DNA of 64,000 nt. It comes from a virus (taxonomy: Duplodnaviria; Caudoviricetes). A program made the translations under genes and the position numbers. Positions 5,631 through 62,419 of the stretch are shown in pieces (the first letter of the stretch is position 1; each line of letters starts with the position of its first letter). The notes under the pieces are model-generated. The model searched no databases and was not told the DNA's origin. It saw only the letters and a list, made by a program, of their open reading frames with translations. The DNA is taken from positions 30,234-94,233 of IMG/VR virus record IMGVR_UViG_3300020112_000191. The stretch is one strand, 5' to 3'.

Positions 5631-8600
5631 ATGTCAAATTTTTGTGTAGTACTTTTTCCTGGTGACAAACACTTGGCGGCTCTCGACGCTATATTGTCTA
5701 AGCAAGGAGCTATAAAGAAGGTATCTCAGACAAGTGCAGATCTTATAACAGCATCGCATTGTATTGGAGCAGCCTTTGATGAGCTTGGCATAGACTTTGA
5801 AGAAAGTCAAGAGGTTCCTCAAGGAGTGTACGAGAAGGCTGCTTCATTGTATAGAGCTAATAACAAAGATTGTCAGATGACTCTTAGCAATGGAAATACC
5901 TATATCGTAGATCCAGTAACAAGTGAAAAATGGGCTGTAGTGGACGGCAAGTTCGTAAGTATAGATTACGCAAACGATCCAGTATTAGCTCCATTAAAAG
6001 AACTAGAGATGAATCCAGAGATGAATAAAACTGAGATTCGTCTTGCTATTCAGGAATGTCAAGATGCCTGCAATAATCTTCTCTACAAAGAGCCATTAAT
6101 GGATGGCAATAGAGAACATGCAATGCGTATGGCATTCTCTTCACAGCAGCTTAATGAGCATTGTGACACAATTGCTCACTTATTCTCTGAGTATCTTACA
6201 AGAGATATCAACAGAAAGATTAAGGAATTCGAAGCTCTCGTAAATGGTATAGAGAAAGATTCTATTGCATGGGATCAAGAGTCTGTTTACGAAGCTGCTG
6301 CTATTACTAAGAATGAATCTATGTCTGACGCTTACAATAAAGAAGCGGTTCTTACTGCTCTTAGAAAGCGTTTGAATTCATTCTATGAAAATCGTTTTGA
6401 AGCAGCCAGAATCATTACTGGTGGATCAGCTTCTGTATTCAACGATGTGTTTAATGATTTAGAGGATGTAACTGATGCTATTAAAGCATTTGAAGCTGGC
6501 GATTACGCTAATTTCGCTCCAGTAGTACGTCTTGGTCTTGCAAAGATGAATATGCTTGCTGGTCTTGATCTTACTAAGCTTGGTGCAAAGAATTATGAAT
6601 ATCTCGCTCAGAATATAATTCCTCAGCTTAAGAAGATGTTATCTACTATCGAGAAGATCATTTCGTTTAAGAAAGAGATAATACAGCGTTCCTGTAGTAA
6701 TCTTGAGACGATTGAGACAGATATGAAGGTAAATTTCAAGGAAGCTACCTCTAATCAAAAAGAAACTGATTTCCTCGAAAATGAGGATAACGAAGATAAA
6801 GAACACTGGATGACAAGTTATACCTCTGTATCCATAGAGAACTCGATGTCAGCCCAGATGAAACTCTTCTTCGCTAACATCGAACAAACCGACAATGCTG
6901 GCAAACCAAAGATTAATTCACTTGGTCGCTCTACATTTGTCGGATTCGGTAAAACCTATGTAAAGATTGCTCAGCTTCTCTCTGATGCTGTATCTGAATC
7001 AGACGTAATGGATCGTCTAAAGAAGGCAGCAGTCACAAATCCTTGGATCAATAAGGTAATTAAGAGACTTGAAGAGTCTAAAGCTACTATGTTCCAGGAT
7101 GACTACGAGAAGTATGATTCATTCTACGCTGAGTTTTTCCATTGCTTCAGAAAGGATGAAGAGCTTCTTGCTGCTGTAGAGGCTGAATCTGCTTACGGCG
7201 TTGATACTTATACATCGCACAATATAAATCGTATTGGTGGTGTTCAAGTGATGGCTGAAGGCTGGATGCAAAATCTTGCTGGCTTCTGCATGGGTGTTGG
7301 CGAAGATCACTTTAAGATCTTCAATGAAGATGGCACTCTCAACGAAGAGGAATATACAGCTCTTATGGCTATGGTTAAGTCTAAGGCTAATATCGTTGAG
7401 AAGGCAAAAAATGACAATGAAGAAGCTGTAAACTTTGTGTATGAAGCCCTTTGTGCTATCGGTATGCCAATCGAATCTAAGGAATCTCTTCAGAAGGTTC
7501 TTAAGCAGATGCCTGATAATGTTATCTCTTCAATTCAGAATAAGATATTTGACGGCAATAAGGGTGCTCTAGCTCAGTTGAAGATTTCTTTCGGTGGTGC
7601 TAATAGCAATCGTAGCTTAATAGCTTGGGCTGAGAATGGATACCAGAATTTCCACATGAAGAAGATGGCTTACTATTTTAGAGACGCTGCAGAGGCTGTT
7701 TCTGAATCATCTGTAACTCATAACGGCAAGACTAGATATTCGCTTGTATCACCTAATTTCATAGGTCGTTTAGCGAAGATCCTTTCTTCTGAAGATACAG
7801 AGAGAGCTAAGAAATTCCTCAAGGAGCAGTATGAATTCCTCTATAATTCTAGGCTTGATTCATTCAATAATAACTATCTGGATTTCATTTACCAGAATCT
7901 TAAGAAGGGTCGCACGTTCGATATGGAGATGTCGAATATGATTTCCTTTGGAGAGAAAGATTATACAGATTTTAACTATGCTGAGACTCAGCTTGTTGGT
8001 ATAGTTAATTTCTTTGAAAATCAGGGTGAAGATTCAGATGCAAAACAAAACGTTGCACCATTTGTATCACCACTTCAGGCAGATAAGCCATCAATGAACT
8101 TGATGCGTTGTCCTGTATATTCGGTTGATGATATAAAGCTATTTGGCGGCCAGCGTAAAACTATTACTGGAGAACTTGATATACAGCGTGGATCTGTTAC
8201 TCAGTCATTGGTTAATGAGATCAATCGTATAAACAAAGTAGGCAAACGTCTTTCTATAATGGTTGAAGCCAAGCAGAAGGGCGTTAAATCTCCTATAGCT
8301 CCGATAACGAATTATGATGCAGTATTCGAGATAAAGGATGGCAAAGTAAAGATTAAGAAGCCTAATGGCCTTACATTTACAACTCATCCATTCTTCAATA
8401 CAGCTAAATTCGTATATGATGCAGCAACTGATACCTTGAAGCTTGGAGTAGATGGACAATCTCTTCTTGACATTCTTAATTCTCTTGACGAAATGGATAC
8501 TCATAGAGAATCAATCATTCGCCAGGCAGCTAAGATTAGTTATGAAGAGAATTTAAATGATTATTTTGAGAAGCTTAAGCGTGAAGGTTTGTTCGTTCAG

Positions 8601-13383: not shown

Positions 13384-16300
13384 ATGATTGGGATTTGTAG
13401 AATAGCTCCAGGGGTGCGCCGTCCAGATGGTACTGAGATTGACGCACCTCTTTATACAAAACTCATGAGTTTGGTTCATGATAGACAGACAGCTCTGGAT
13501 CTTTACTACTCAGTAAAGACTCCAGCAGCTATGTCTGTTATGAAACCAGCTTTAGATGAGTTCGGTGATCCGACGTTTGAATCGCTTATTACAAATAAGC
13601 AGTTCGCAAACAAACTCGGCAAAGATGTTTACGCAAAGGTTATAGAGGCCCAAACAGGCGTTAATATCAATGCTACCTACGACAATGCACAAGTGGCAGC
13701 TAAAGAGGCTGAAAAGATAAATAACAGCGCATTTGGCGAAAATAATGTCGCTGTGCATGTAGAGAAATCTGTTGGTATCCAAGCAATCAAGGTTCTTCCT
13801 AAGTCACCTAAGACAGAAGCACTCCACGAAGCAATAAAAACATCTGATGATATTCGAGAGAAGATCTATACGACACTTGCTGGCTGGGGGATATCTGTAG
13901 GCGAGCTTAATGCTCTTGATAAGAAGCTTGGAGTCAATGGTATAACTGACACAGCTAGACCAGCACGTACAGCTGAAGGATTAGTAGAGCTTATTCGTGT
14001 AGCTAAAGGCGAGAAGGAAACAGCAGCTCTTACAGAGGAATTTGCTCACGTAGCTTATAAGGCTCTCAAATCTACTGGCTCTCCATTATGCGCTAGACTT
14101 GAGAATATGCTATCTGATGAGGCTGTATTAAGAGAAGTTCTTGGAGAAGATTATGAAGCTTACGAAGAAAAATATCATGGCGAAAAATCTATAATAATTG
14201 AAGAGGCCATTGGTAAACTTATCTCTGAAGCAATTTCGACTGGCAATATGCGTCCTGGACCACAGAAGACGATTCTAGGCCGTATAATTGACGCTATTAA
14301 GGATTTCTTTAGTAAGTTCAATCCATCACCACTTGAAGAGCAAATAGCACGCTCTAAGGCCGTTGCAGCTAGTATTGCTTATGATGCTTTGAATAATAAT
14401 ATCAAAACTAAGGCTGAGAAGATAATCGCTACTGGTGCAGATACAATGTACCAGATCGATAATGAGAATTACGAAACATCCGATGAGGTTGTAGAAGATC
14501 CTCTTTATAATATGTTAAAAGATGTGATCGAGGTTCGTATTACTCAGACAGCTCTGGAGCAGAAACAGCTCGATGTTGTATCAGCAGAGAAAGATGAACA
14601 TATAGCAGTAGAGGCTCTTCAGGATGATTTGATTGATGCTCATTATGAGATTGGTATTTCAAAGGCAGCTCTTCAGTCAACTCAAAGAATGGAGAGAGCA
14701 ATCAATTTCTATAATAAACTTAAGGAATCTGAAAAGTCAACTCCAGCTGGTCGATTCAAGTCGCTTAGACGCTTAAAGATTTATGCAGATGCAGCAGCTC
14801 GTATTTACGATATCATGGATAAGCGTAAGATAAATGAGATCGCTGATGAGAAGATTAGAGAAGCTATTCTTGCTAGATTAAATACTCTAGAAGAGCAGAT
14901 AAAGACAGCTAGAGAAATGTTCCAGAAGAATGCTAAAGAAGAGATCTCTGAGATGTTTGCTCAGGCTATTCCTAATGGCAAGGAATCTACATTCAACGAC
15001 GATAAGCGTGTTGATATAGACGCTCTTCTTGATGTTGTAGATAAAGATACTGGCTGGTGTGATCATTTCTTGTTATCAATGGCAGAGTCTCGTAACGATC
15101 TTCTTAAAGCATTCGACAGAATCTCGAAAGAGGCGAAGGAGAAGGCTCGCTTGAAGACTGAAGAAGATATAGATGAGATTAAGCGTCTTGGCAAGCTTCT
15201 TGAAAGAGAAGGTTACAAGAATACGGATTGGGCTTACGAACGTAATGCTGAGGGAATCCCTACTGGCTATTTGCTTACCAGAATAGATCGTCACAAGTTC
15301 CTTGTAGAGCGTAAAGAAGCAATGCAGAGATTCAAGGCTGAATTGAATCCAGATGGTACTGCTGCTGGTGCAGCCAAAGAAAAGAGAGCTATGAAAGACT
15401 GGCTCAATGAGCATGCTACTATGTTCAATGGAGAATGGTGTCCTAAGAGCGAATATTACTCTAATCCAGAGTTTGCTAATCTCAGCAAGGTTCAGCAGCA
15501 GTTCATCGAAAGAATGCTTGAAATAAAGGAAGAATTGGATGCTCAGTATCCTACCGGTTCTACAATAGGTAATCGTGCGCCAATCGTTCAGAAAAGCTTC
15601 ACAGAGCGTCTTATTGCTAATGGCCCATCAAAGGCTTGGGAGACACTTAGTACATCAATAAAGGACTCTCTTATAGATAATGAATTCGATACTGAATATG
15701 GTGATGTTGACGTTAATGTGTTGATGGATTTCCAGAAGAAGACAGTCAAGAAGCGTCCAATATTCTATAATTCAATTCCTAAAGATAAGACGAAGCTTAG
15801 AGATCTCTCTACAGATTTAGTTTCTTCAATGATTTGTTATGCAGCCAAGGCTAATGAATACGGCGAAATGTCGAAGATAATCGATGGCCTTGAGGTTGCT
15901 AAAGATTACATCACAGAGTTTACTGGTGTTAATCAGAAGAAGGGATCTCATACATTGCGTAATGTAGCTAAGGTTGGTAATGCTTCGTTTGAATCAGATG
16001 CGCGTCTGTATGGCAAATCTGGAATGACAGATAAACTGAACGACTGGTTCGATATGCAAGTTTACGGCCAGTACACAAGATCTGAGGGCCAGCTGTTTGG
16101 ATCTAAGATTTCATTAGCTAAGGCAGCTGATGCTTCTAACTGGTGGACATCACTTAGAACGTTTGCAGCCAATGGTCTTGCGGCTGTATCGAACGTACTC
16201 GCTGGTAAGATCCAGACTTATATAGAGGCAGCTGGTGGCAAGTATTTTGGCTTCTCAAACTATATGAAGGCTGGCAAGATTCTTGCCGAGAATATTCCTG

Positions 16301-17412
16301 GCGTTCTTGCTGATTGTGGTTCTAGAACTAAGACAAACAAGCTCTGGCTTATGATGGATAAATTCAATGTTCTCCAGGATTTTGAGAGCGAGGTAAACGA
16401 GGTAGATTGGCACAAGAAATCAAGGTTCTCTAGATTATTCTCTGGCTCACTTATGTATGCTGGTAATACAATGGGAGAATTTATGCTTCAGAGTCGTTCT
16501 GCTCTTGCGATGCTTGATAAAGATTCGTTGATGTTGAATGGAGAGTCAATAAGCATATACGATGCTTATGAGGTAAAGTATTTTACCGAAAAGGAAGATG
16601 TTCTCTCAGATGAAGATCAAGGTTTAGGCGGCAAGCTTGTTCTTAAGCCAGGCGTTACTAAAAAAGATGGTTCTGCATTTACTCAAGATGATATAATTGC
16701 TCAAACTCTTAAGATGAAGAGCGTTAATCAGAAGATGCATGGTATCTACAATAAGGTTGATAGAAATATAGCTCAGAGCTATGCTGCTGGTCGTATGGCT
16801 ATCATGTTTAGAAAGTGGATCGTTCCATCGGTAATGAGGCGTTTTGGTTCTTCTTCAATTAACTCAGATACTGGCGAATGGGAGCAAGGTTACTACAACA
16901 CTTGCTGGACAATAATAAATCGTCTTCGTAGAGAAATACAGGCTGGAGAATTCAAATGGGCCGCATTCAAGGATCAACTTACAGAGGACGAAATTGCTAA
17001 CGTTAAGAAGGCAATGTTTGAACTCTGCACAATGTTAAGCTTGTTCTTGATCAAGTGCTATGGCTTCGATGATGACGATAAGGACAAAAAGAAGACTTAT
17101 CTCGAATCAATGGTTAAATATCAGTGTTGCCGTCTCTACACAGAAATTGGTGCATTGACTCCAACTCCTGCGATTCTTACAGAAGCGATGACAATTGTTA
17201 AATCTCCAACAGCAGATATAGATACATGGGAATCGTTTACAAATATTCTCGATATCTTTGCATTCTGGAATTGGGGAGATACATACGAAACTGGTAAACA
17301 CAAGGGCGAATCAAAGCTTAAGTGGGATCTCTTGAAGATGTTCCCATACATTAAGCCAATTGAGTCGACTTTGGATCCAGAGTCTAAGTCAAGATTCTTT
17401 GACAATAAGTAA
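13384..17412 (+). CDS. Giant virion/ejected protein (vRNAP-associated) with a degenerate zincin-like motif
   Basis: 1342 aa, largely helical; TEEFAH...EEAIGK near the N-terminus; C-terminal KMHGIY / MFRKW / EQGYY motifs recalled from crAss large cargo proteins. Confidence 0.7.
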   Translation: MIGICRIAPGVRRPDGTEIDAPLYTKLMSLVHDRQTALDLYYSVKTPAAMSVMKPALDEFGDPTFESLITNKQFANKLGKDVYAKVIEAQTGVNINATYDNAQVAAKEAEKINNSAFGENNVAVHVEKSVGIQAIKVLPKSPKTEALHEAIKTSDDIREKIYTTLAGWGISVGELNALDKKLGVNGITDTARPARTAEGLVELIRVAKGEKETAALTEEFAHVAYKALKSTGSPLCARLENMLSDEAVLREVLGEDYEAYEEKYHGEKSIIIEEAIGKLISEAISTGNMRPGPQKTILGRIIDAIKDFFSKFNPSPLEEQIARSKAVAASIAYDALNNNIKTKAEKIIATGADTMYQIDNENYETSDEVVEDPLYNMLKDVIEVRITQTALEQKQLDVVSAEKDEHIAVEALQDDLIDAHYEIGISKAALQSTQRMERAINFYNKLKESEKSTPAGRFKSLRRLKIYADAAARIYDIMDKRKINEIADEKIREAILARLNTLEEQIKTAREMFQKNAKEEISEMFAQAIPNGKESTFNDDKRVDIDALLDVVDKDTGWCDHFLLSMAESRNDLLKAFDRISKEAKEKARLKTEEDIDEIKRLGKLLEREGYKNTDWAYERNAEGIPTGYLLTRIDRHKFLVERKEAMQRFKAELNPDGTAAGAAKEKRAMKDWLNEHATMFNGEWCPKSEYYSNPEFANLSKVQQQFIERMLEIKEELDAQYPTGSTIGNRAPIVQKSFTERLIANGPSKAWETLSTSIKDSLIDNEFDTEYGDVDVNVLMDFQKKTVKKRPIFYNSIPKDKTKLRDLSTDLVSSMICYAAKANEYGEMSKIIDGLEVAKDYITEFTGVNQKKGSHTLRNVAKVGNASFESDARLYGKSGMTDKLNDWFDMQVYGQYTRSEGQLFGSKISLAKAADASNWWTSLRTFAANGLAAVSNVLAGKIQTYIEAAGGKYFGFSNYMKAGKILAENIPGVLADCGSRTKTNKLWLMMDKFNVLQDFESEVNEVDWHKKSRFSRLFSGSLMYAGNTMGEFMLQSRSALAMLDKDSLMLNGESISIYDAYEVKYFTEKEDVLSDEDQGLGGKLVLKPGVTKKDGSAFTQDDIIAQTLKMKSVNQKMHGIYNKVDRNIAQSYAAGRMAIMFRKWIVPSVMRRFGSSSINSDTGEWEQGYYNTCWTIINRLRREIQAGEFKWAAFKDQLTEDEIANVKKAMFELCTMLSLFLIKCYGFDDDDKDKKKTYLESMVKYQCCRLYTEIGALTPTPAILTEAMTIVKSPTADIDTWESFTNILDIFAFWNWGDTYETGKHKGESKLKWDLLKMFPYIKPIESTLDPESKSRFFDNK

Positions 17413-34610: not shown

Positions 34611-34612
34611 AA

Positions 34613-48743: not shown

Positions 48744-51700
48744 CTAATCAGCAATTAAAGCCATGATCTTGTCGTACTGATCCTTATTGAATGTGTAGAG
48801 CCTCTCAAGCTTCTTAAGGCCAGTAGTTGTATCCTTAACAACCTGATAGCGGCCCTTTGGAATCGTTGTATAAGTTGCAGTAGGATCATCCTTAAAATTC
48901 CTTAAACGAAGAATACACCAGTCTGTATTAAGAGTACCAGTAGGTTGTTTATCATCTATACTAAGATCACAAGGAAAATCCTTTACTAAATATCCATTAT
49001 CAAGATTGTAGAATGTATTGTAATCTGTACGATGTACATAGAACTCTTTAATAGGTGGCCTATGAGAATAATCTCCGCCATTATACATATCTACTGTTAC
49101 AACATGTCTCTTAAAATCTGGTGATAATGTATCACGAAGCAACATTCTTCTTGGAATGTATGAATATTTAGTATTGTTTGGATTAGCGTAATGACTAGGG
49201 AATCTATCCCCATACTGGAAATAGAATCCAGGATCAGATACGCTCTTCGCTCCTACATTTCTAAGATATACAGCAACAGTTTTTTTACCAGTTCCGCTAT
49301 AGTAGCTTCCGTCACTTCTCTTGTCTGGAGTAAATGAGAATACCAAATAATCAATTCCAAATCTTAAGCTCTGAGTAAATGCGCTTGGATTTTCAAATCT
49401 AAATCCGAGTTCAGCAGTTTCATCTGGTATCACATCGCATACAGCACATACAGGCTCTCCAGTATGATCCGCAACGGTCTTTATATATTGTTGTACGAAG
49501 TCCTCACCAGTTCTTGTCGAATAATCATAATATACATTCGTATCTGCATACACAAGTTTCTTGGCAAAGAGATTACTATCTGTTTTACCGCCCTTCCATG
49601 CATTTGTCCAGCAAGTAGCTGATCCCATTCTTGTTACATTATGCATTTCTTGAGCTGATCCTATTTGACGATAATAATTGTACGCTGTTATATTACCAGT
49701 TCTTTTAGGCATTTCTTCTGTAGTAGCTCTGCCTGTATCATCTGTTCGTCTTTTAGTAGAATCATCCTTCGAAGCAACAAATCCAGTATTTGGTCTTATA
49801 AACAATTTTTTCTTAAGTTCGGTCTCTATTTCGCTTGGAATTTCTACATCATACTCTCCAAGAGGGTGAGATGATACATATTCAAAACCAACAGATCTTC
49901 TGCCGCCATAATAATCATCTTTAAATAATTGTCTATCTACAGTAATTAGATCAAGTTCTGAATAATTATACACATTATCTTTTTTACTCCATTTTAATCC
50001 ATAATTGAATATGCAACTTAATTCGTCAATTGTTGCAGTTCTCCAATCTGGAGCAAGCCAAATACAAGCTGGATCTGTAATATGCTCATCAACACTAAGA
50101 GGATCAATAACATCTCTAGTAAGATTTATTATATGTCCTTCTGGCATTGATTGAACATCTGGATACATATCGTAATCCTGGCGATCGTTACCTACTGAGA
50201 ATGTAACTCCATTGATGTGTATAGAACGCAATTCATTAGTACTACTATTTACATCAGCTGTAGTACCAAGGGTTAATGGGAGATCCCAGAAAGTTTCTTT
50301 GTAAGTGCCATCAGACTGCTTCTCCTGAGTACTTATTGAATTGAGAATTCTTAGATATTGAGTATCATGATTACATCTAACTGCATCCCATGTTTTGTCT
50401 GGAATTTCTGAAGATAATTTAGCACCAATGTGTGATGTTGCCAAATTATCTCCGAAAGCTTTTGTGACAAATGTCTTATCACCTAAAGGATACGATGTTC
50501 CAGAAATATATATATTGTTATTAGTATCTACATATACATAATTTCTCATTTTCTCATCAAAGGTAGATTCATCGCTGATTTTTACCCAAGCATTATTTAT
50601 ATAAGCATATATTAGATAAAACGTCTCTGAACCAACCTGTTTTTCTACTAATGCCAAATTAGATGGAGGAAACAAATTATTTGATATACTAGGCAAACTT
50701 GACACACTATTATATACTCTTACTCCATCAATACGATAATTTGTGCCGTTAATAGTCAAACTTGAAAGAAGCTCGCAATTTTGAACTCCGTCATGCTTTT
50801 TGACAACAGATATTGAGTAATAATTATTGCCAACTTTCAAAGTACTTAAATCTGACCTTTCACCACTTGATGGGATAACTACGTTTGGTTCAATATTGAT
50901 TTGATCGCCACCGATTACGCCTAATGTTAACACACCATTAACCTTCTTTACGATCTTGATTTCTGTATTAGTAGTTCCAGTTGCGCTCTTGATGTATATA
51001 TTGCCTTCTACAAGGTTTGATGTTGGAAAATCATTTACAACAAAAACATTTCCATATTCATTCAACGTGACGTTATCACCACTCTTTACACCAATTTTTA
51101 TTGATGGCTTAGTTACTTCGTCGTATTCAGGTGTTATTATTGTTGTTATATTAGATTTCCCTGCTCTGAATGCACTTCCATTCCACTTTCCAGATGACGT
51201 ACCTATTTGTCCTATAGGTGTTCCATCTACTGCTATAAAATCAGGTATTTGGCTATGCAATGCAGCTGGTGTGCTAGCTGCATTAAGAGGCTTTCCATAC
51301 ACAGGAATATAATCTTTGCCGCATAATACTTCTTGCGAAAATTCTATCTCTTTTCTTTCAAGCATGTAATCAATCATTTTGCATCCAAGATCATAACCAA
51401 TCTGAAAACCAGGAAGAAATTCTACCGCACCAGCAATAGCACCAATATCTCCATCTGTCATAAAAACTGTAGTTAGTTTTGTTGTATTCTCGAATGCTGG
51501 TTTAGAACCAAAAGTTATGCCATCCTTAGAAAATTCTACACTTCGATATTCGAATTTGTTAGTAGATGTGTTCTTATAATACCGTGGAACGCAAAATGTT
51601 ATCTTTGCATCATCTTCTGCAAGGAAAGCACCACCAATAACTTGGTATTCGCCAACTGCGATTGAAAGAGTTGTTTCATCTACATAAGATTTATTAGCAC

Positions 51701-53276
51701 TATATATTTCGTAATTATCACATTTAGCTACTTCTTCGTCTGTAAAATCTGCAAAGCTTTTTCCTAGAACCGCTTCGCAATAATCACAATAACTAGTATA
51801 ATGTGTCTCGAATACAAGAGTTTCCATCATCACCGCATATACAGTAGTACCATCTATATCAACAGATTCAACTTCGATATTAGGATGTCTAGGTAAAAGA
51901 TCTAATATTCTCTTGAATTCAGCATAATGGAAATGTCCAAAAGAAATTACTCCATGATCATCTCCTGGAGTATATTCATTATAAACAGGATTATCATAAA
52001 TTGTCTCAGTAGTTGTTTCGCCTTCATGATGAATAACTCCACCTTTTGTGATATACAAATGATTCTCCTTAATGCTAGAAGGTATGCTACTTACTATATG
52101 AACATTTTCCTCTGGAATAGGCTTAACATTATGTTCTACGCCGTCAACCTTAATCTTCTTCAGGTATCCATCTGTATCATCTGTAGCAACTACTTCAGAA
52201 CCTGCTGCGGAATCGCCGCCTTCGCCGCCTTCTGGAACGTTGTAAGTTTCTCCATCTACAATGATCTGTTTGAGATTTCCAGCTTCATCGCTCTTAGCTA
52301 CGACCTTAGATTTATTTGCAATGGCTGAATCAATAGAATCAATCTTTGCAGCTATTGTTGAAACACTACCATCTTTAAGCTTTATGTCTGAACCAGTAAG
52401 TTCTACTTCTCCAGTTTTCCCGTTAACAGATGTTATAACGTCAGCTGGAAGATTGTATGTGTCGCCATCTACCTTTATGGTTTTAAGAGTTCCGTCAGCA
52501 TTTGTTGTGCAAGTTACTTTAGAAGAATCAAACGTATAGAGTTTATTTCCTATGCCAATTTTGCTAATTGCTCCACTAGGTGAAAACTTTGCTATATCTG
52601 TTGGATTAGCCTCTACAATAGTAGGAGCAGATTCAACGCAATCAAATATAACTTGCATATTGAATGGACTAGCTGTGAATGTAATATTCATCAGCACAGA
52701 TACAAGACGATCTTGCCATTCGTAGCTAAATCCCTTATATTCTACTCTATCGACTTTTTTATGTATAACGTTATAATGAGAGTATTCTTCTGCAGTTACT
52801 TGCATCATCAGCTTTGTAGGATTCTCGTAATCCATGCTAGCTTGTTCGCAATCAAAATAGAAATGCATAAACTGATACAAATATCCAGCAGCATCGGCTG
52901 TTATAGAATGCGCTCCTGGAACAAAAGCATTCAACTGATTCAGTAATGCTCCAGCTGGTATCAATCCATCAGTTTTCTTTATTTCAGTCTTAAGCTTCTT
53001 AACTTCTTCTTCAAAGCTAAATTCTACTACTTCCGTAGATCCACCTTCTGGAATCTTATATTCTACATTGTTTATCTTCAAGCCAGCAAGATTTGGTGCT
53101 GTAGAAGATACTCCAGATGTCATAGGCGTAACACTAGCACTACTAGCTTTAGCATCAATCTCAGATATTATTGTATCAAGAGTTTTGCCATCGCTATCAG
53201 CAACACGTTCTGTACGTGTTACTATGCCATGCTTCGCTGACGTTTTAATTTCGTCTAGAACAATTATTTCTGCCAT
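48744..53276 (-). CDS. Long tail fibre / receptor-binding protein
   Basis: About 1510 aa from MAEIIVLD; VITSVNGKTGEVEL fibre motif and repeated L..I.VDG.TY.(L/V)P units. Confidence 0.75.
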   Translation of the reverse strand: MAEIIVLDEIKTSAKHGIVTRTERVADSDGKTLDTIISEIDAKASSASVTPMTSGVSSTAPNLAGLKINNVEYKIPEGGSTEVVEFSFEEEVKKLKTEIKKTDGLIPAGALLNQLNAFVPGAHSITADAAGYLYQFMHFYFDCEQASMDYENPTKLMMQVTAEEYSHYNVIHKKVDRVEYKGFSYEWQDRLVSVLMNITFTASPFNMQVIFDCVESAPTIVEANPTDIAKFSPSGAISKIGIGNKLYTFDSSKVTCTTNADGTLKTIKVDGDTYNLPADVITSVNGKTGEVELTGSDIKLKDGSVSTIAAKIDSIDSAIANKSKVVAKSDEAGNLKQIIVDGETYNVPEGGEGGDSAAGSEVVATDDTDGYLKKIKVDGVEHNVKPIPEENVHIVSSIPSSIKENHLYITKGGVIHHEGETTTETIYDNPVYNEYTPGDDHGVISFGHFHYAEFKRILDLLPRHPNIEVESVDIDGTTVYAVMMETLVFETHYTSYCDYCEAVLGKSFADFTDEEVAKCDNYEIYSANKSYVDETTLSIAVGEYQVIGGAFLAEDDAKITFCVPRYYKNTSTNKFEYRSVEFSKDGITFGSKPAFENTTKLTTVFMTDGDIGAIAGAVEFLPGFQIGYDLGCKMIDYMLERKEIEFSQEVLCGKDYIPVYGKPLNAASTPAALHSQIPDFIAVDGTPIGQIGTSSGKWNGSAFRAGKSNITTIITPEYDEVTKPSIKIGVKSGDNVTLNEYGNVFVVNDFPTSNLVEGNIYIKSATGTTNTEIKIVKKVNGVLTLGVIGGDQINIEPNVVIPSSGERSDLSTLKVGNNYYSISVVKKHDGVQNCELLSSLTINGTNYRIDGVRVYNSVSSLPSISNNLFPPSNLALVEKQVGSETFYLIYAYINNAWVKISDESTFDEKMRNYVYVDTNNNIYISGTSYPLGDKTFVTKAFGDNLATSHIGAKLSSEIPDKTWDAVRCNHDTQYLRILNSISTQEKQSDGTYKETFWDLPLTLGTTADVNSSTNELRSIHINGVTFSVGNDRQDYDMYPDVQSMPEGHIINLTRDVIDPLSVDEHITDPACIWLAPDWRTATIDELSCIFNYGLKWSKKDNVYNYSELDLITVDRQLFKDDYYGGRRSVGFEYVSSHPLGEYDVEIPSEIETELKKKLFIRPNTGFVASKDDSTKRRTDDTGRATTEEMPKRTGNITAYNYYRQIGSAQEMHNVTRMGSATCWTNAWKGGKTDSNLFAKKLVYADTNVYYDYSTRTGEDFVQQYIKTVADHTGEPVCAVCDVIPDETAELGFRFENPSAFTQSLRFGIDYLVFSFTPDKRSDGSYYSGTGKKTVAVYLRNVGAKSVSDPGFYFQYGDRFPSHYANPNNTKYSYIPRRMLLRDTLSPDFKRHVVTVDMYNGGDYSHRPPIKEFYVHRTDYNTFYNLDNGYLVKDFPCDLSIDDKQPTGTLNTDWCILRLRNFKDDPTATYTTIPKGRYQVVKDTTTGLKKLERLYTFNKDQYDKIMALIAD

Positions 53277-53321
53277 ATTTATTTGAATTAGGGCCAGCTG
53301 TTGCACTGGCCCATATTGTTA

Positions 53322-54870: not shown

Positions 54871-55737
54871 TTAAATGTATTTTATTGTTTCTACCATTGG
54901 GTTTTGTGCAGTAGTCTTATAAACATCATAAGACACATTGGTTCCATCTATATTAACATCAATGCTCTTCATCTTCTCAAAGCCGCAATTAAAAGAATAC
55001 ATACTACCTTTATTCTTAATCCTCTGAGGATAAATAATATCGTTTACATAATCAGATGGTGCTGCAAAGAAGATAGTATCTAATTTATCTGTAAGAGTAA
55101 GAGTTACCTCTCCAGGAAGAGGATCACAGGTTGCTCCAGTATAACACTCTGCATTGTCTGAGTAAGATCTACCATTCTTTATACAAGATACAATATCAAC
55201 GTCTGTAATTAGATCGTTTGATACAAATATAGAAGAAGGGTATCTAGCTTCTACAAGAAATTCTGCATCCATTGTTATTGCCTCTGAACATTTTACTTTA
55301 ACTACATGTTTTTGTATTCCTTCAGCAGTAGGTGATACTGCGAATGTCTGAGTTGTCGTAATTCCATCAAGCTTAACTTCGAGAGGACTTATCTCAGTTG
55401 TTTTACCTTTCTCAGTTTTATATACATGGATCGTATTCAACTTAGAGAGCTGAATGAACGAATTATTGAGAATGGTGAACTTCGCCGATGTCCAGTCTAG
55501 CTTAACAGAGAACGTTACTTTGTTTACGTCTTCAGCATTGATCTTAACAAGTTTACAATGCTTAACAATATACATATCGCCTTCTACAAGTTTAGCTTTG
55601 TTGCCGAATACACACTGGATGTAATCATTCACAAGATCTTCAATCGAATGAGAATTCTTATAATGTGGATGATGACAATTGCACGGAATCGGTACGCAGC
55701 TTTCTTCGTTATTAGGCTTCTTGCCGTCCTTTATCAT
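54871..55737 (-). CDS. Putative fibre-associated structural protein
   Basis: 288 aa, beta-rich, Cys/His cluster near the N-terminus (CVPIPCNCHHPH); fibre-gene context. Confidence 0.5.
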   Translation of the reverse strand: MIKDGKKPNNEESCVPIPCNCHHPHYKNSHSIEDLVNDYIQCVFGNKAKLVEGDMYIVKHCKLVKINAEDVNKVTFSVKLDWTSAKFTILNNSFIQLSKLNTIHVYKTEKGKTTEISPLEVKLDGITTTQTFAVSPTAEGIQKHVVKVKCSEAITMDAEFLVEARYPSSIFVSNDLITDVDIVSCIKNGRSYSDNAECYTGATCDPLPGEVTLTLTDKLDTIFFAAPSDYVNDIIYPQRIKNKGSMYSFNCGFEKMKSIDVNIDGTNVSYDVYKTTAQNPMVETIKYI

Positions 55738-56318
55738 TGCTGTACGTTTATGAATCGTTTATTTTCGGTGCAAATGTAAGGATTATTTTCCACAATATCA
55801 ACAACAGTTACTACTTTTTTCTTCTGGAATAATCTAAATAGCCAGAATTTTTTTGGCGGATTAACTGTCTCTTTATATGTATGGAAGATTGCTGTCATTT
55901 CGCTCTTTACACTGAGATCAACAGAAAGGCCACTAGGAGGCTTAATTCCAAGCTTTATTGTCGTATATGGCTTATATATAATCGTATCTAATTCAGCTAA
56001 AAATATAGGTTCTTTTACGACTATTGTATCATGTATCTCAGCCTTACTTTCTACATATACAACCTCTGTAACTTTGCGAGTTTTAACGCCAGCTTCCTTG
56101 ATCGTCTCCAGAATCTTCTGATTGAGAGAATCATTTGAATATTTAAGCTCATCAATAGTAAGCGTTAATTCACGTCTGCTATCTTCAGAAGCTCTGTAAT
56201 TCATTGTCTGTCTTGCTACCTCTTCGTTTAGTGTAGAAATGCGGCCCATCGCATAGTACAATGAGCCGCACAATCCTACAACTAAAAGAATCAGTGCGAT
56301 AAGCACTTTATTCTTCAT
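55734..56318 (-). CDS. Spanin/Rz-like membrane-anchored coiled-coil protein
   Basis: N-terminal TM helix, coiled coil, HDTIV and KKFWLFRLFQKK motifs seen in Bacteroidota phage lysis genes. Confidence 0.6.
   Translation of the reverse strand: MKNKVLIALILLVVGLCGSLYYAMGRISTLNEEVARQTMNYRASEDSRRELTLTIDELKYSNDSLNQKILETIKEAGVKTRKVTEVVYVESKAEIHDTIVVKEPIFLAELDTIIYKPYTTIKLGIKPPSGLSVDLSVKSEMTAIFHTYKETVNPPKKFWLFRLFQKKKVVTVVDIVENNPYICTENKRFINVQQ
55771..55801 (-). promoter_or_regulatory. Internal host-type promoter for the fibre operon
   Basis: TACATTTG(CACC) at 55778-55771 with TTG 20 nt upstream; 33 nt before ATG 55737. Confidence 0.6.
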
Positions 56319-56320
56319 AA

Positions 56321-58777
56321 TTATTTACTAGATGAAGAAGCGGGCTTGCTAGCCTTCTTCTTGTCGATTTCTAATTTCTTTTTATCGTTTTCGTTCTTGA
56401 TATTGAACTCACGCTTTTGTTCAGCGAGATCTTCTGCATGATGGCGATCGTCTTGCTTCATCTTAGCTACTTCCATAGTAAGCTACTCTCCATTATCGCC
56501 TTCTACTGGTTTATCTTCAGCTTGCTTCGCTGCGAGATTCTTATTGGCGATATCTTCCTGAACTCCAGCCTGGATCTCTGCTACACGAATCTTAGTTTCA
56601 TTATCACGCATATTGATCTTATCGGCAAACTCTTGCTGAGCCTTTATCTGTTCGAGCTGTATCTGAAGCTTCTTCTGCTCTGCCTCTTGTTCAGCCTGAG
56701 CTGCTTGCTGCTGCTGGGCCTTCATACGCTTTTCAGCGGCATCAACCATTCTCTGCTTCTCTGACAATGAGCTTGTTGAATAAAGCTTCAATATAGAACC
56801 CATATCAAGCATCTTGTTCTGCATAGCTGCCTGAGCAATCATGTCGATCTGCTGATTCAATCTCTGTGCGCCATCACCATTCTCAATGCAAATTCCGTAA
56901 TCACATTCACAGAACTGCTCTCCATCAATGTTGAATGTTTCCTTTGCACCATCATCAAGAATGTAATCGAACTTCTTCAAGCCGCCGCTTACTGCCTCTT
57001 TAGCAGTTTCGAGGAATACCATCAATGCTCTACGCTTAGTGTCATCATGAGTTTCAAAGAGCCATTTGGTGATCATTGCTGACTGCATTGTAGCTCTCTC
57101 TACGCCACCTACTGTTTCACGATTTTCAATGGATCCCTCACGCTGTTTAGAGATACCAGCTGCTGCTGACATTTCTGCATCGATCTGCTGGAGAATGCTT
57201 AAGTGCATATTTATACCAGCCGTCTGATCTGCATCTACAGCACCACTATTAGCTGTGTTTAGAGAGCCAGCGATTATTCCAGAGGCTTGACCAGTCTTTC
57301 CAACGTTGAATGGATTCTCTACAAGAACTTTTGACTTACGAGCAAAATGCAACCATTTTTCTACAGACCAATCGTCTGGCTTCTTAGACATATCGAGTCG
57401 AATCATTTTACCCCAAGATGTAGCAACAAGTTCATTGAGTCTGTAATGGATTACATCGTAGTAATAAGCGAATGGTTTTAAGCGATCTACCATTGAAAAA
57501 GGCTTACCTTCATTCAGGTTGTAAATTGTTCCAACGAATCCAAAATGGCAACGTGAAGGATTGTTAAGCGAATTATACTGAACTTTACATGGGCCAATAT
57601 TTACATAAATCTTTTCGCCAATCTTAGTGCCTTCCCAAGCTTCGTTAATCCAGATAAGCTTTTCTTCTTCACCCTTAGATTTATCAATCACATGGCTTTC
57701 TTCATAGTAATCGTAAGTCTCTTTGCCAGTTATCTCATCAAAATGCTTTACCATCTTGATTGGCTTTCTTGACTTCCAATATACCTTGAGAACTCTAAGG
57801 TTGCCAGCTTCATCAAATGGAGCCTGAAGATTGTAAGTAGCACCTTCAAATATTCCTCTTATCGTCTGATCTTCAAGACCAACTGCTGTACCTTCATCGC
57901 CAACAAATGCTGTGTTAATAAATTCGTTACGTGGCTCATATTCGCCCATTGTGCTAGTTCCAGTATTCATTGCTATAGGAAGATCCTCAATGTACTTAAG
58001 ATCCTCTGCAGTAAATTGCTCTCCATAGAGATCGCAAATCATACCTGGACTCATGTATTCCTCTGTAACAACAATATCAGCATCTTCAATATGGTTTGAA
58101 TAACCGCTTCTGAATATTGAAATGTGTTTTGGATTTACTCTACGAATAGTTGGCTCTCCATGATCAATATCACACTTGTAAATTTCTTCACCGACAGTAG
58201 TAGCATCCCTGAAGCCCTCTGTAAACATAGGCTTCATATTAAGCTCTTTGTAATAATGGTTCAGCAAGAAATTTGCATTGCGTTCACGAATGTCCTGATA
58301 TTCGTAAGTAAAGTAATTATTTATAGCATCAAGTTCCGCATCGTCTTGGCTCTGCGTCTGCTCTTGATTGCCCTGAAGATACTGCTGTAATCTATCGAGA
58401 ATAGCAGCCTTCTTCGTCTTCTCCATTTCGGAGATGGCCGTAGGATTAGTAACTACTACTCGATGTTCAAAGATTCTTGATTCCTCTTCACCATATAGCA
58501 AATCGAGCTTCGAGTTGATAATTGGATAATGAGGTATCTTCTTTGGAATCTGACTACCCTGGTGAGCATCGGCTTCCATCCAAGCTTTGAGATCATCCAT
58601 GTGGATCTTGCCATCCACCAAGTCGTAGTTGATAATCTTGTGCCGAATTGATTTTCTGACTGGCTCGTAGTGCCAATAGCTCTTTGAGTCAGCCCAATCT
58701 ACACATTGCTTTCTCCACTTTTCGTCTTTCTTGGAATAAGCAATCTGCTGTTTAGGAAAATTAACAAACTCTGGCAT
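56321..58777 (-). CDS. Portal protein (764 aa to TAG at 56483-56485; 818 aa if that TAG is read through)
   Basis: FPKQQI, HYPIINSKLDLLYGEE, WINEAWEGTKIG, SMVDRLKP and GISKQREG...ETVGGVERA crAss portal motifs; follows terL; frame stays open 53 codons past the TAG. Confidence 0.9.
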
Positions 58778-58816: not shown

Positions 58817-61800
58817 TTAAAATGAGAAATCCATAGGGTTGAAATTATCTCCATCAATTTCGTCATCAAATTTGTTGAAGAACGGATCATCCATGCGTTC
58901 GTCACGAACTTTACGCACTTCATCCATTGATGGATCTCCACCATAAGCAATCATTCTGTCTTCTCTAAGGAGCATAAGCATGCCCATAGAAGATATTCGG
59001 TCAAAGTTGCCTTCAGAGTTGTACACTGCACACTCTTGAAGCAATGCTCTGTTACGAATTAAGAATAGATTACGAGTAGTTTCCTCACGCTCAGTACCAT
59101 CGTCATTTTGACGAATCACAGTTACTGGTTTTAAGAGCCAATCACGAAGTAAATGTCTAGCCCAGTCGTTAACTCCAGGAGTTGCCACAGTACCCTTAGC
59201 GCAGTTACCTATTGTGTTGCCCTTGAACATTTGCTTGTCCCTCAAACACTGCAATGAATCAGTAAGCAAATATGTAGAAGACATCTGCGAGAAATAGGTA
59301 AATAAGCCCTTCTTGTTGTTTTCGTAGTTACATCGAGCATTATAATACAAGCACAATCTGCGGCAGATCTCATAGAAATCATTAGCGAAATCTGGTCGAC
59401 CAGTATACTCAGCTACAATTTTATCTGTCCAGAGATCCAGAATGAATATAGAGCCTAATGACATTGATTCAGCCTGGTCGTTATCGTAAGGGTCGACACC
59501 AGCAATATATCTATTGTCAAATGGCTTTTTAGTTCTTTCGTTGATCTCAGGCTGAGCAAATATCTCTATTGCACCTTTGACTTTGTTATCCTTAGTTGGA
59601 AATATATGTATAGGCTGATCATTAGTTGGTCTAAAACCGATTTCTCCATTCTTCTCAATTATAAGATCGCCTACAAGAACGTCATCGTATTCTCCAGCGT
59701 TATTATCGAGCTGAGCAATTCTGTTACCACAATCTACAGAAGGGAACATATTGTAAGCCATCGAGATGATTGCCTCTGAAGGAACTATTGGATTTTCGGC
59801 CATACGCTTGATGATCTTGTCTGGGTCATTAGAATTGTATTTAGCCTGGAATCTTTCAAGTAATATTTTCTTAAGAGCCAATGTAACATCGCTATTGCCA
59901 TCTTCATCCATACAGCCAGTACGACTCATGTAAGCTGGAAAGAAATACACGAATTTCTTTTTGCCAGTACCAATTTTGTCGTAGACATTAGGCAAGCCAT
60001 ACATCATTGAACCTTCTGGATGATACATAATATCTGAAGCACCAGCAAAGTCCGAAGCGTTATCACCAGCAGTACCAACCATTATTATCTGGCCGAATAC
60101 TGCGTCACCATCCTTTACTGAAGGAATTGTATTCTCGAATACTTTACTCAAATTAGGGAACGAACCAAATTCCTCGAAGAATATATGAGCTGCACGTTTA
60201 CCACGAGCCTTACCAACTTTATCTGCAATCGTTACACCAACAATAGTATTCTGTGTACCACGAATAATGCCATTCTCTTTATCTCTGTAGCCCATTACCC
60301 AGATCATATCGTCTGGACGCTCTGTAAGTCTTAGAGAAGGCCAATGCATCTTATCTGCGCACCAGTCAATTGTCTTCTGGAACTTATTCAAGCAGCCGTC
60401 CTTACCTTGAAGGTATTCCTTTGAATAAGCCATATTTACGCCCATTACGCCTCCTTCTTTTGTCTCTTCGTTTTCTCCGAGAATGAAATCATGAGCCAAC
60501 ATAGATGACATCGTATAGCTATTGTGAGTTACTATTTGATCTGCGGCAACGAAACAATGCGACTTATTATCAACTGTCACACATTTAGCACCAGTATATC
60601 CAAGGAACTCTATGTTAGTTATTGCTGTCCATTTAGAACGATTGCTCTTATTATAGATAACCTTGCTGTATTTTCTCTCAAGGTTAAATAAACGCTCTTC
60701 TGCAAATATTGTAATATCGTAGCTATCTAAACACTTTACGACTTCTCCATTTTTCTTGTATGAAGATTTATGTTTAGATACATTACAATTAAATCCAAGA
60801 GTTCTGACTATTGTTACAACAGAATCCTTAAGAGCTTCAGATGTAGTAGTAAAGCACATATTGCCTTTTGAAACAATTCCATCTGAATCCATCAAGCCTC
60901 TTAATACATTAAGTCTTACTTCCTTGCTGTTATAGATATATTCATCTGGAATGTATTTATCTTCAGATTTTAAACTCCAGAGATCACCAAATAAATCGCA
61001 ATCTATAGATAAGCTGTATGTGTAATTATCATTACTTACCTTATGGAATTCGTAAGGAATAAATTTTCTGTATGTGTCAATATCGTCCTTATGTGCGGTA
61101 AAATTTACGTGCTTAGATTTCTTTTTCCTGAAGCATCCATCACCAACAAGAAATCCCAGTGTATATGGATCTATTGGCGTATTCTTATACTCGAACTCAA
61201 GACACTTACAAACTGGAATTCTATATTGATATTCTCGACCATTAGTGCGTTTAGAAGTTTTAGTCCTCTTCATTACTTCTTTGCCAATCATTTGAGATAA
61301 TGGAATTGTTACAATCTTATTATTTCTGTAATGATCTTTAACAGTAAATAAGTGATCTTCACTAGCCAATATCTCTCTGCCATCCTGAAGAGTGACTGTA
61401 TAAACTCCGCAATGAGGATCATCATACGGAATATCTATAACTTTAGTTGGCTTTCCATCGTCACCAAACAAATAGTCACCCTTCTTTATTTGACACCAGA
61501 ATTTCCAACCATCTGGAGTTAATACTGATTCGTCATAACTGAGTGCTTTTGAAGCACCACGCTTTGCTAATACTGCACAGAAATTACCGCCTTCCCAATT
61601 GTTATAGATGCCACCGAAACGAGCTTGTTCGTAATAATGAAACATGTAGTAAACGCCTTCCCAGAACTTAGGGAAATCCTCTACACGACTAGCTTTCTTT
61701 GGATTCTTTGGATCAAACTTAGACAACTCAATACGAGCGTAATTCAAGTAGTAATAGCAATAACCAGTGATCCATTCTCCATCTGACTCTCTTACGTAGC

Positions 61801-62149
61801 CATTCCAGCATCTGCGAGTCTCTTCACGTATCCATCTGCCGAACTCTGAATTCTTATTTGGATTTGGCTTCAAGAACGTATAACAGCCATACTTGCGATA
61901 ATGATTCGCAGCTGGCGTAAAATAGTCCATATTTTCGAGAATATGAGGATTAACTATATCCACGATTATACGGCCTTTATCGTCTCTCTCAATGTCACAA
62001 GCTCTCTTTCTGGATGTTGATACCATCGTCTGTATCATCGGAACCTGGTTAAAGAATTCCCAGAACTGCTGAATACATTCTTCTGGCATATCTGAGAAGA
62101 ACTTATCGTCAAGAGGCGTTTGATATTTATTTAATATTGGATAATCCAT
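58817..62149 (-). CDS. terL: Terminase large subunit (intein-containing; about 768 aa after splicing)
   Basis: Walker A AKRGASK^S split by the intein; ARGKRA.HIFFEEFG Walker B; MVGTAG; nuclease motifs YIAGVDPYD and NFDRISS. Confidence 0.93.
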   Translation of the reverse strand: MDYPILNKYQTPLDDKFFSDMPEECIQQFWEFFNQVPMIQTMVSTSRKRACDIERDDKGRIIVDIVNPHILENMDYFTPAANHYRKYGCYTFLKPNPNKNSEFGRWIREETRRCWNGYVRESDGEWITGYCYYYLNYARIELSKFDPKNPKKASRVEDFPKFWEGVYYMFHYYEQARFGGIYNNWEGGNFCAVLAKRGASKALSYDESVLTPDGWKFWCQIKKGDYLFGDDGKPTKVIDIPYDDPHCGVYTVTLQDGREILASEDHLFTVKDHYRNNKIVTIPLSQMIGKEVMKRTKTSKRTNGREYQYRIPVCKCLEFEYKNTPIDPYTLGFLVGDGCFRKKKSKHVNFTAHKDDIDTYRKFIPYEFHKVSNDNYTYSLSIDCDLFGDLWSLKSEDKYIPDEYIYNSKEVRLNVLRGLMDSDGIVSKGNMCFTTTSEALKDSVVTIVRTLGFNCNVSKHKSSYKKNGEVVKCLDSYDITIFAEERLFNLERKYSKVIYNKSNRSKWTAITNIEFLGYTGAKCVTVDNKSHCFVAADQIVTHNSYTMSSMLAHDFILGENEETKEGGVMGVNMAYSKEYLQGKDGCLNKFQKTIDWCADKMHWPSLRLTERPDDMIWVMGYRDKENGIIRGTQNTIVGVTIADKVGKARGKRAAHIFFEEFGSFPNLSKVFENTIPSVKDGDAVFGQIIMVGTAGDNASDFAGASDIMYHPEGSMMYGLPNVYDKIGTGKKKFVYFFPAYMSRTGCMDEDGNSDVTLALKKILLERFQAKYNSNDPDKIIKRMAENPIVPSEAIISMAYNMFPSVDCGNRIAQLDNNAGEYDDVLVGDLIIEKNGEIGFRPTNDQPIHIFPTKDNKVKGAIEIFAQPEINERTKKPFDNRYIAGVDPYDNDQAESMSLGSIFILDLWTDKIVAEYTGRPDFANDFYEICRRLCLYYNARCNYENNKKGLFTYFSQMSSTYLLTDSLQCLRDKQMFKGNTIGNCAKGTVATPGVNDWARHLLRDWLLKPVTVIRQNDDGTEREETTRNLFLIRNRALLQECAVYNSEGNFDRISSMGMLMLLREDRMIAYGGDPSMDEVRKVRDERMDDPFFNKFDDEIDGDNFNPMDFSF
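60521..61546 (-). mobile_element. Intein (342 aa) with LAGLIDADG homing endonuclease, class-3-like
   Basis: Starts ALSYDESVLTPDG, block B ASEDHLF, LAGLIDADG motifs LGFLVGDG and LRGLMDSDG, block F AKCVTVD, ends VTHN followed by Ser(+1). Confidence 0.92.
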
Positions 62150-62151
62150 AA

Positions 62152-62409
62152 TTATAAATTCGTTGGAAGAATATAAGCTCTATCTGGATCAGTTACAAAT
62201 GGAACTCTAGGCTCTGTAAATCCAAATCTAGCTAAATTGTTGTATCTCATAAAATACTGAATAATCTCTTCTTCTCTCTGTTTCTTTGCATCATAGCCGA
62301 GTAAAGGCTCTGCAGAGATATTATTTACTTCAAATTTCCATACTCACTTGAGAGCATTATACTTTAATGGGCTTTCTTCGATATCCTTTACAACCAATAT
62401 ATTCTTCAT
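62152..62409 (-). CDS. 85-codon gene with one in-frame TGA (readthrough candidate or pseudogene)
   Basis: MKNILVVKDIEESPLKYNALK*VWKFEVNNISAEPLLGYDAKKQREEEIIQYFMRYNNLARFGFTEPRVPFVTDPDRAYILPTNL; fills the gap from 10 nt after the upstream stop to the TAATTATG junction with terL. Confidence 0.7.
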
Positions 62410-62419
62410 AGTTCTAATA

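Follow-up and report, generated by a model that had tools for sequence, protein, structure and literature searches.

The window analyzed here is a stretch of 64,000 nucleotides (positions 30,234 to 94,233) from the IMG/VR virus record IMGVR_UViG_3300020112_000191 (G000), a linear sequence of 94,233 bp with 38% G+C that is 97% complete by CheckV and whose source is a crAss-like phage of the gut. On the minus strand, at 56483..58777, lies a portal open reading frame (ORF) of 764 aa that ends in VEGDNGE and then meets a TAG at 56483 to 56485 (codon 765); codons 1 to 764, which the standard code translates, span 56486..58777. Past this TAG, the same frame runs on for 53 sense codons (56324..56482) to a TAA at 56321..56323, as the first-pass annotation of this DNA had described. 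An ATG corresponding to Met768 (56474..56476) lies 6 nt (two codons) past the TAG and opens a 51-aa ORF, for which translation could re-initiate there. The TAA overlaps the ATG of the next gene as TAATTATG (56316 to 56323). This downstream gene (55734..56318, minus strand) encodes 194 aa and has a weak match to DUF6549, just below the Pfam cut-off, as well as a match to the Rz-like spanin profile of PHROGs. All genes flanking the portal stop are on the minus strand. The first-pass annotation had also drawn attention to use of the same junction at 34611, 42633, and 62150; the octamer is indeed present there (at 34608, 42630, and 62147), but it is not enriched, with 7 matches versus 5.4 expected. 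Its description of the 164 nt from the TAG to the next gene as lacking a terminator or promoter was borne out by consensus scans, which revealed no minus-strand terminator in this stretch; the nearest minus-strand promoter-like match was weak (9 of 12) and lay at 56628 to 56600, inside the portal coding sequence.

The portal assignment is supported by both a curated profile and a solved structure. The ORF scored 31.7 bits against the Pfam family P22_portal (PF16510; cut-off, 26.1 bits), and a phmmer search linked it to gp20 of Bacteroides phage crAss001 (PDB code 7QOG) with an E value of 8.6e-239, so that it belongs with the P22-like and crAss portals on the basis of a score above the curated cut-off and of full-length similarity to a solved portal. 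It is ~50% identical to the portals of Steigviridae, such as those of DAC15 and cr128_1.

Annotated homologous portals are 791 to 802 aa long and thus exceed the 764-aa ORF. When the C termini were aligned, the 53-codon tail fell on the conserved end of these homologues, which carries the motif L.E..R.F and then a segment rich in K, D, and E; in crAss001 gp20, the tail motif aligns with residues 759 to 791. The three closest relatives other than the sister strains described below (L004, L008, and L009, from a large protein collection) have portals of 825 to 839 aa with ~55% amino acid identity. All three read straight through the TAG position, with Q, Q, and N encoded under the standard code by CAG, CAG, and AAT, respectively, and the residues that follow this position (VAKMKQDDRHH.EDL.E.KREF) are strongly conserved among them. 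We also surveyed IMG/VR by searching with the portal alignment. Of the 80 homologues recovered, ~73 have one contiguous ORF of 791 to 815 aa with the tail motif included; none of these standard-code contiguous homologues lacks the tail motif, and none of the 80 is split at the position of portal codon 765. Judged from these alignments, the 53-codon tail is a genuine, conserved C terminus of the portal that is contiguous with the rest of the protein. The comparison with crAss portal homologues proposed in the first-pass annotation therefore came out as it had anticipated, with a contiguous tail and with Gln aligned to the TAG in the closest relatives.

The neighborhood of the portal gene differs among these relatives in several other respects. 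In L004 (6496 to 6657), L009 (6520 to 6666), and L008 (12480 to 12615), a small gene of 48 to 53 aa lies between the portal gene and the DUF6549 gene, although gene calling did not mark the homologous stretch in L008. The lineage of the window lacks this small gene, and its portal stop overlaps the start of the DUF6549 gene. Upstream of the portal gene, the window encodes a large terminase of 1110 aa (58817 to 62149, minus strand) with an intein and a LAGLIDADG homing endonuclease (Pfam LAGLIDADG_3, Hom_end, and Intein_splicing). The intein is also found in L004 and L008, while the terminase of L009 is 768 aa long and lacks it. A 270-nt gap (62150 to 62419, minus strand) separates terL from a 180-aa gene and contains an 85-codon frame with one TGA (62344 to 62346), which is also present in both sister strains; in L004, L008, and L009, the genes flanking this gap abut and the stretch is absent.

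Two contigs from other samples, JGI 3300001598 EMG_10000176 (97,566 bp) and Logan SRR1221442_441 (86,004 bp), are 99.5% identical to the window at the DNA level and are referred to here as the sister strains (L010 and L011). The exact read-through protein (818 aa, with Q765) is called on both contigs, each of which translates under table 11 to an uninterrupted 818-aa portal. Their portal genes stop at the same TAA as the extended frame of the window, which marks it as the true portal stop. Where the window reads GAG TAG CTT ACT ATG, both sisters read GAG CAG CTT ACT ATG; the variable base is window position 56485, which on the coding strand is T in this record and C in the sister strains. Over 16.7 kb, the sisters and the window share 99.5% identity, with 79 substitutions and no indels, and the 2,457-nt portal gene contains only two of these differences: a synonymous one at codon 610 and the C/T difference at position 56485. 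Because both near-identical contigs have CAG, the TAG is private to this assembly, and it is likewise absent at this position from all other standard-code relatives. The CAG strains share all 53 codons past the TAG without a single difference, which indicates that the nonsense change is recent. An exact-pattern scan over the site, allowing either pyrimidine (Y) at position 56485, gave no match in viral and metagenome contigs, where near-identical records may have been masked. The first-pass annotation had proposed either readthrough yielding short and long portal isoforms or a split portal, and had itself named TAG versus CAG in related genomes as a check on these ideas; the CAG in the near-identical strains goes against them.

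A lone C-to-T change is all that separates the gene at this codon from the matching gene in two assemblies, and a truncated portal is otherwise unseen among the ~73 standard-code relatives. Both observations are what would be seen if the phage in the sample had CAG and the T in the consensus were an artifact of base calling or assembly. We compared the record with the sister strains over all 42,341 bp for which sister DNA was obtained. This comparison yielded 216 variable sites, consisting of 156 transitions and 60 transversions (ratio, 2.6), and the assembly otherwise looks clean relative to the sisters, with one single gap and no other indel over 42 kb. Synonymous change dominates in the conserved genes encoding TerL (5 synonymous and 1 nonsynonymous differences), the portal, and the capsid protein (1 synonymous difference), so the strain differences look like real, selection-filtered divergence rather than an error-rich consensus. 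Exactly two sense-to-stop changes in real genes were found over the 42,341 bp, both of them private to this assembly, and there was no nonsense change in the opposite direction (a stop in a sister and a sense codon here). Under this codon usage and transition bias, only 3.0% of random coding substitutions create stops (47% of which are TAG). Dozens of errors would thus be needed to produce two stops, too many to fit the few nonsynonymous differences in the TerL, portal, and capsid genes. For these reasons, we consider it unlikely that the TAG is an error, and the allele would instead be real.

The two private nonsense changes compare with ~6 expected in real genes in the absence of selection, and they sit at the least damaging places, namely, an accessory early lipoprotein gene and the last 7% of the portal. 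The lipoprotein change lies outside the window (G000 6821 to 6823; L014:822-824), where a private G-to-T transversion has turned codon 42 of a 157-aa gene, GAG (Glu) in the sister strains, into TAG. A further in-frame TAG outside the window (G000 8391 to 8393; L014:2392-2394) falls on codon 54 of an early frame of 143 aa and occurs in the sister strain L015 as well. The homologue in Xanthomonas phage Xoo-sp13 spans both halves of this frame in a single frame, and a tblastn search of the genome at an E value of 1e-3 found only the gene itself and no intact paralog. The 143-aa frame is either a shared pseudogene or the site of a shared leaky stop.

A candidate joining of a 98-aa ORF with the primase across a TAG (G000 15579 to 16940) was ruled out, since the primase profile begins at the primase's own ATG and a sister strain also has the 98-aa product. 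The gene for a GT2 protein has a 61-codon extension past its TAG, with the profile match staying within the ORF. Of the 47 nonsynonymous differences from the sisters, 36 fall in a 1510-aa late gene (48744 to 53306, minus strand) that has only 6 synonymous ones, which suggests a host-recognition protein under diversifying selection. At the other end of the record, a sister contig runs 3.3 kb past its start (L020:4800-8189) with an open frame of >1130 aa, indicating that the record begins partway through a large gene.

Crassvirales that use genetic code 15 also have in-frame TAGs at glutamine positions of late structural genes, and many in-frame stops occur in their late genes (PMC10136315). TAG-to-Gln recoding exists within this portal family: in IMG/VR, we found portals with in-frame TAGs at Q-like positions in L032 (2 TAGs), L079 (13), L090 (11), and L100 (17), as well as in L039 (2). 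A review reports that code switches can occur over short phylogenetic distances (PMC10136315). The portal TAG replaces a Gln codon, and the two private ambers, together with the third, shared TAG in a gene with a contiguous Xanthomonas phage homologue, could indicate that a host or helper phage lets TAG be partly read in this lineage, as amber suppression or as incipient recoding. Several properties of the genome stand against this. Whereas a code 15 genome would not be expected to use TAG as a terminator, this genome ends genes with TAG: among the 76 non-nested ORFs of at least 90 aa, 52 end with TAA, 16 with TAG, and 8 with TGA, and the TAG-terminated genes include the 514-aa capsid gene and late genes of 2299 and 1279 aa. 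No TAG terminator changed between the strains compared. Code 15 relatives carry many in-frame TAGs, whereas the late operon here contains a single internal one, that of the portal, with its other ORFs uninterrupted under table 11, in agreement with the first-pass observation that no internal TAG is evident in other late genes. Open frames of at least 100 codons cover 89.1% of the sequence under code 11 and 93.5% when TAG is read as sense, but this gain is not specific to TAG, as the same exercise gives 93.3% for TGA and 97.4% for TAA. The first-pass annotation was thus right that the genome as a whole is not recoded. A tandem stop within 0 to 1 codons follows 6 of the 16 TAG-ended genes versus 15 of the 52 TAA-ended genes, which does not distinguish the two classes.

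The genome also lacks a recognizable means of reading TAG. ARAGORN found no tRNA in the window, the 94-kb genome, or the extra 3.3 kb of the sister contig, and the CUA suppressor tRNA or release-factor gene whose presence the first-pass annotation had suggested looking for did not turn up; no RF-1 or PCRF domain is encoded in the genome, and Rfam gave no match in the window. In contrast, the complete genome behind L032 (G001), a recoded relative, has at least 25 tRNA genes, one of which has the anticodon CUA (L102:624-696) and lies within a 21-tRNA array. Since a suppressor tRNA is reported for only ~40% of phage genomes with TAG recoding (PMC10136315), its absence alone is not decisive, and it is the other properties described above that are decisive against recoding here. 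Beyond these, the near-identical strains have CAG at the portal site. The lipoprotein amber replaces Glu rather than Gln and sits in an early gene (codon 42), contrary to the late-gene pattern of recoded crAss phages, and the finding that both nonsense changes are TAG is expected by chance (P, ~0.22). Suppression or incipient recoding is thus a very unlikely account of the portal TAG. By the same token, it is quite doubtful that the private ambers at portal Gln765 and lipoprotein Glu42, together with the amber shared between strains, mean that the lineage tolerates ambers without a phage suppressor (through suppression by the host or a helper phage, or through unusually leaky reading of UAG) as an early step to the TAG-to-Gln recoding known from related crAss-like phages.

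We found equally little at the stop itself to point to programmed readthrough, in which both the stop and the extension past it are conserved. Here, the extension is conserved and the stop is not. The 121 nt that surround the stop are predicted to fold no better than shuffled sequences (z-score, 0.17), so there is no sign of a stimulatory RNA structure, and the only relevant feature of the readthrough context is a C as the next base. Together with the CAG in the sister strains and the lack of a suppressor tRNA or release-factor gene, these results do not sustain the first-pass proposal that site-specific or suppressor-dependent readthrough produces two portal isoforms.

The second arrangement put forward in the first-pass annotation was a functional split, in which re-initiation at ATG 56476 yields a 51-aa tail peptide apart from the portal body, the tail acting in trans. 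The sequence offers some basis for this idea. The ATG follows the TAG by 6 nt and has a GGAGAG 9 nt upstream, and in a low-confidence AlphaFold2 model, the stop falls in a predicted coil (residues 750 to 765) and the 51-aa ORF matches the predicted helix 766 to 807 almost exactly. However, both the ATG and the GGAGAG are already present in the unsplit CAG strains, so they are adaptations neither to the stop nor for a split gene, and the ATG position is occupied by Leu in the more distant relatives (~55% amino acid identity). The break and the restart are therefore neither conserved nor of common origin; none of the 80 relatives is split at this position, and a tail detached from the dodecamer would lose its 12-fold tethering inside the capsid. 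We regard a functional split as highly improbable. For annotation, the portal of this record is best described as an 818-aa gene with a nonsense codon, and the 51-aa ORF at ATG 56476 should not be called a gene.

What the stop removes can be gauged from crAss001 gp20 (PDB code 7QOG and others; Bayfield et al. 2023, PMC10172136), which resembles the portal of the window over its full length, with the same domain order and the same conserved tail motif; in the window portal, as in gp20, this motif would follow a long helical barrel. The two differ in that gp20 is one uninterrupted 806-aa chain, whereas the portal here is interrupted at residue 765 by the private TAG, and in that the clade of the window has an insert of ~27 aa (VEGDNGEQ...DDRHH) before the tail motif. 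The portal barrel of gp20 is resolved for residues 672 to 739 of 806 (PMC10172136), and the gp20 residues beyond the barrel appear not to have been modelled in that structure. Residues 1 to 738 of the window portal align with gp20 residues 1 to 739. Because residue 738 corresponds to gp20 residue 739, the end of the resolved barrel, codon 765 lies beyond the resolved structure. We also modelled the full-length portal with AlphaFold2 and, owing to the low confidence of the model (mean pLDDT, 57), relied on it solely for secondary structure. Residues 671 to 749 are predicted to be helical, 750 to 765 to be coil, and 766 to 807 to be a second helix; the alignment to the resolved gp20 barrel (672 to 739) supports the first of these helices. 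With the stop in the predicted linker, only the terminal helix would be lost. When the portal of phage P22 is cut at residue 602, with the whole barrel missing, its core is identical to that of the full-length structure, and it was crystallized bound to gp4 (PMC5290284). The P22 barrel is, moreover, unfolded until DNA is packaged (PMC5290284). The 764-aa product probably still assembles the portal ring.

Taken together, the data are probably best explained by a private single-base nonsense substitution in one strain (CAG to TAG, Gln765 to amber) rather than by a programmed decoding signal. Under the standard code, this strain would make a portal of 764 residues instead of 818. The truncated protein would keep every domain resolved in the crAss001 structure, the alpha-helical barrel included, and would lack the last 54 residues, a flexible but conserved terminal segment that is predicted to be helical. 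Such a portal would be expected to form dodecameric rings and to support growth, perhaps at some fitness cost. Its viability would explain why the structural genes carry a nonsense change here and nowhere else. A little full-length portal may still arise from low-level near-cognate readthrough, or a little free tail peptide from re-initiation at the ATG that already lay 6 nt past the stop; both would be by-products. Against a private nonsense allele, the tail is conserved family-wide, which implies a fitness cost for its loss, and no other standard-code relative lacks it. The private lipoprotein amber and the TAG held in common with a sister strain leave a small opening for amber tolerance in the lineage.

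Nonsense alleles of this kind are familiar from the classical conditional-lethal amber mutants of phage portal genes. Like those alleles, the one described here is a single CAG-to-TAG transition that is absent in near-identical relatives and is followed by intact codons indicative of a recent change. It differs from them in the position of the stop, which lies past the resolved structure and costs the protein only its final 7%. Given this position and the lytic nature of this metagenome-assembled phage, the phage is probably viable and not a prophage in decay. Such a mutation is of little importance in itself. Its practical lesson is that where a lone in-frame TAG occurs in a late gene of a crAss-like phage, near-identical strains should be checked before recoding or readthrough is claimed. 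If real, the allele would also amount to a natural experiment, from which the final 54 residues of a crassvirus portal seem not to be strictly essential.
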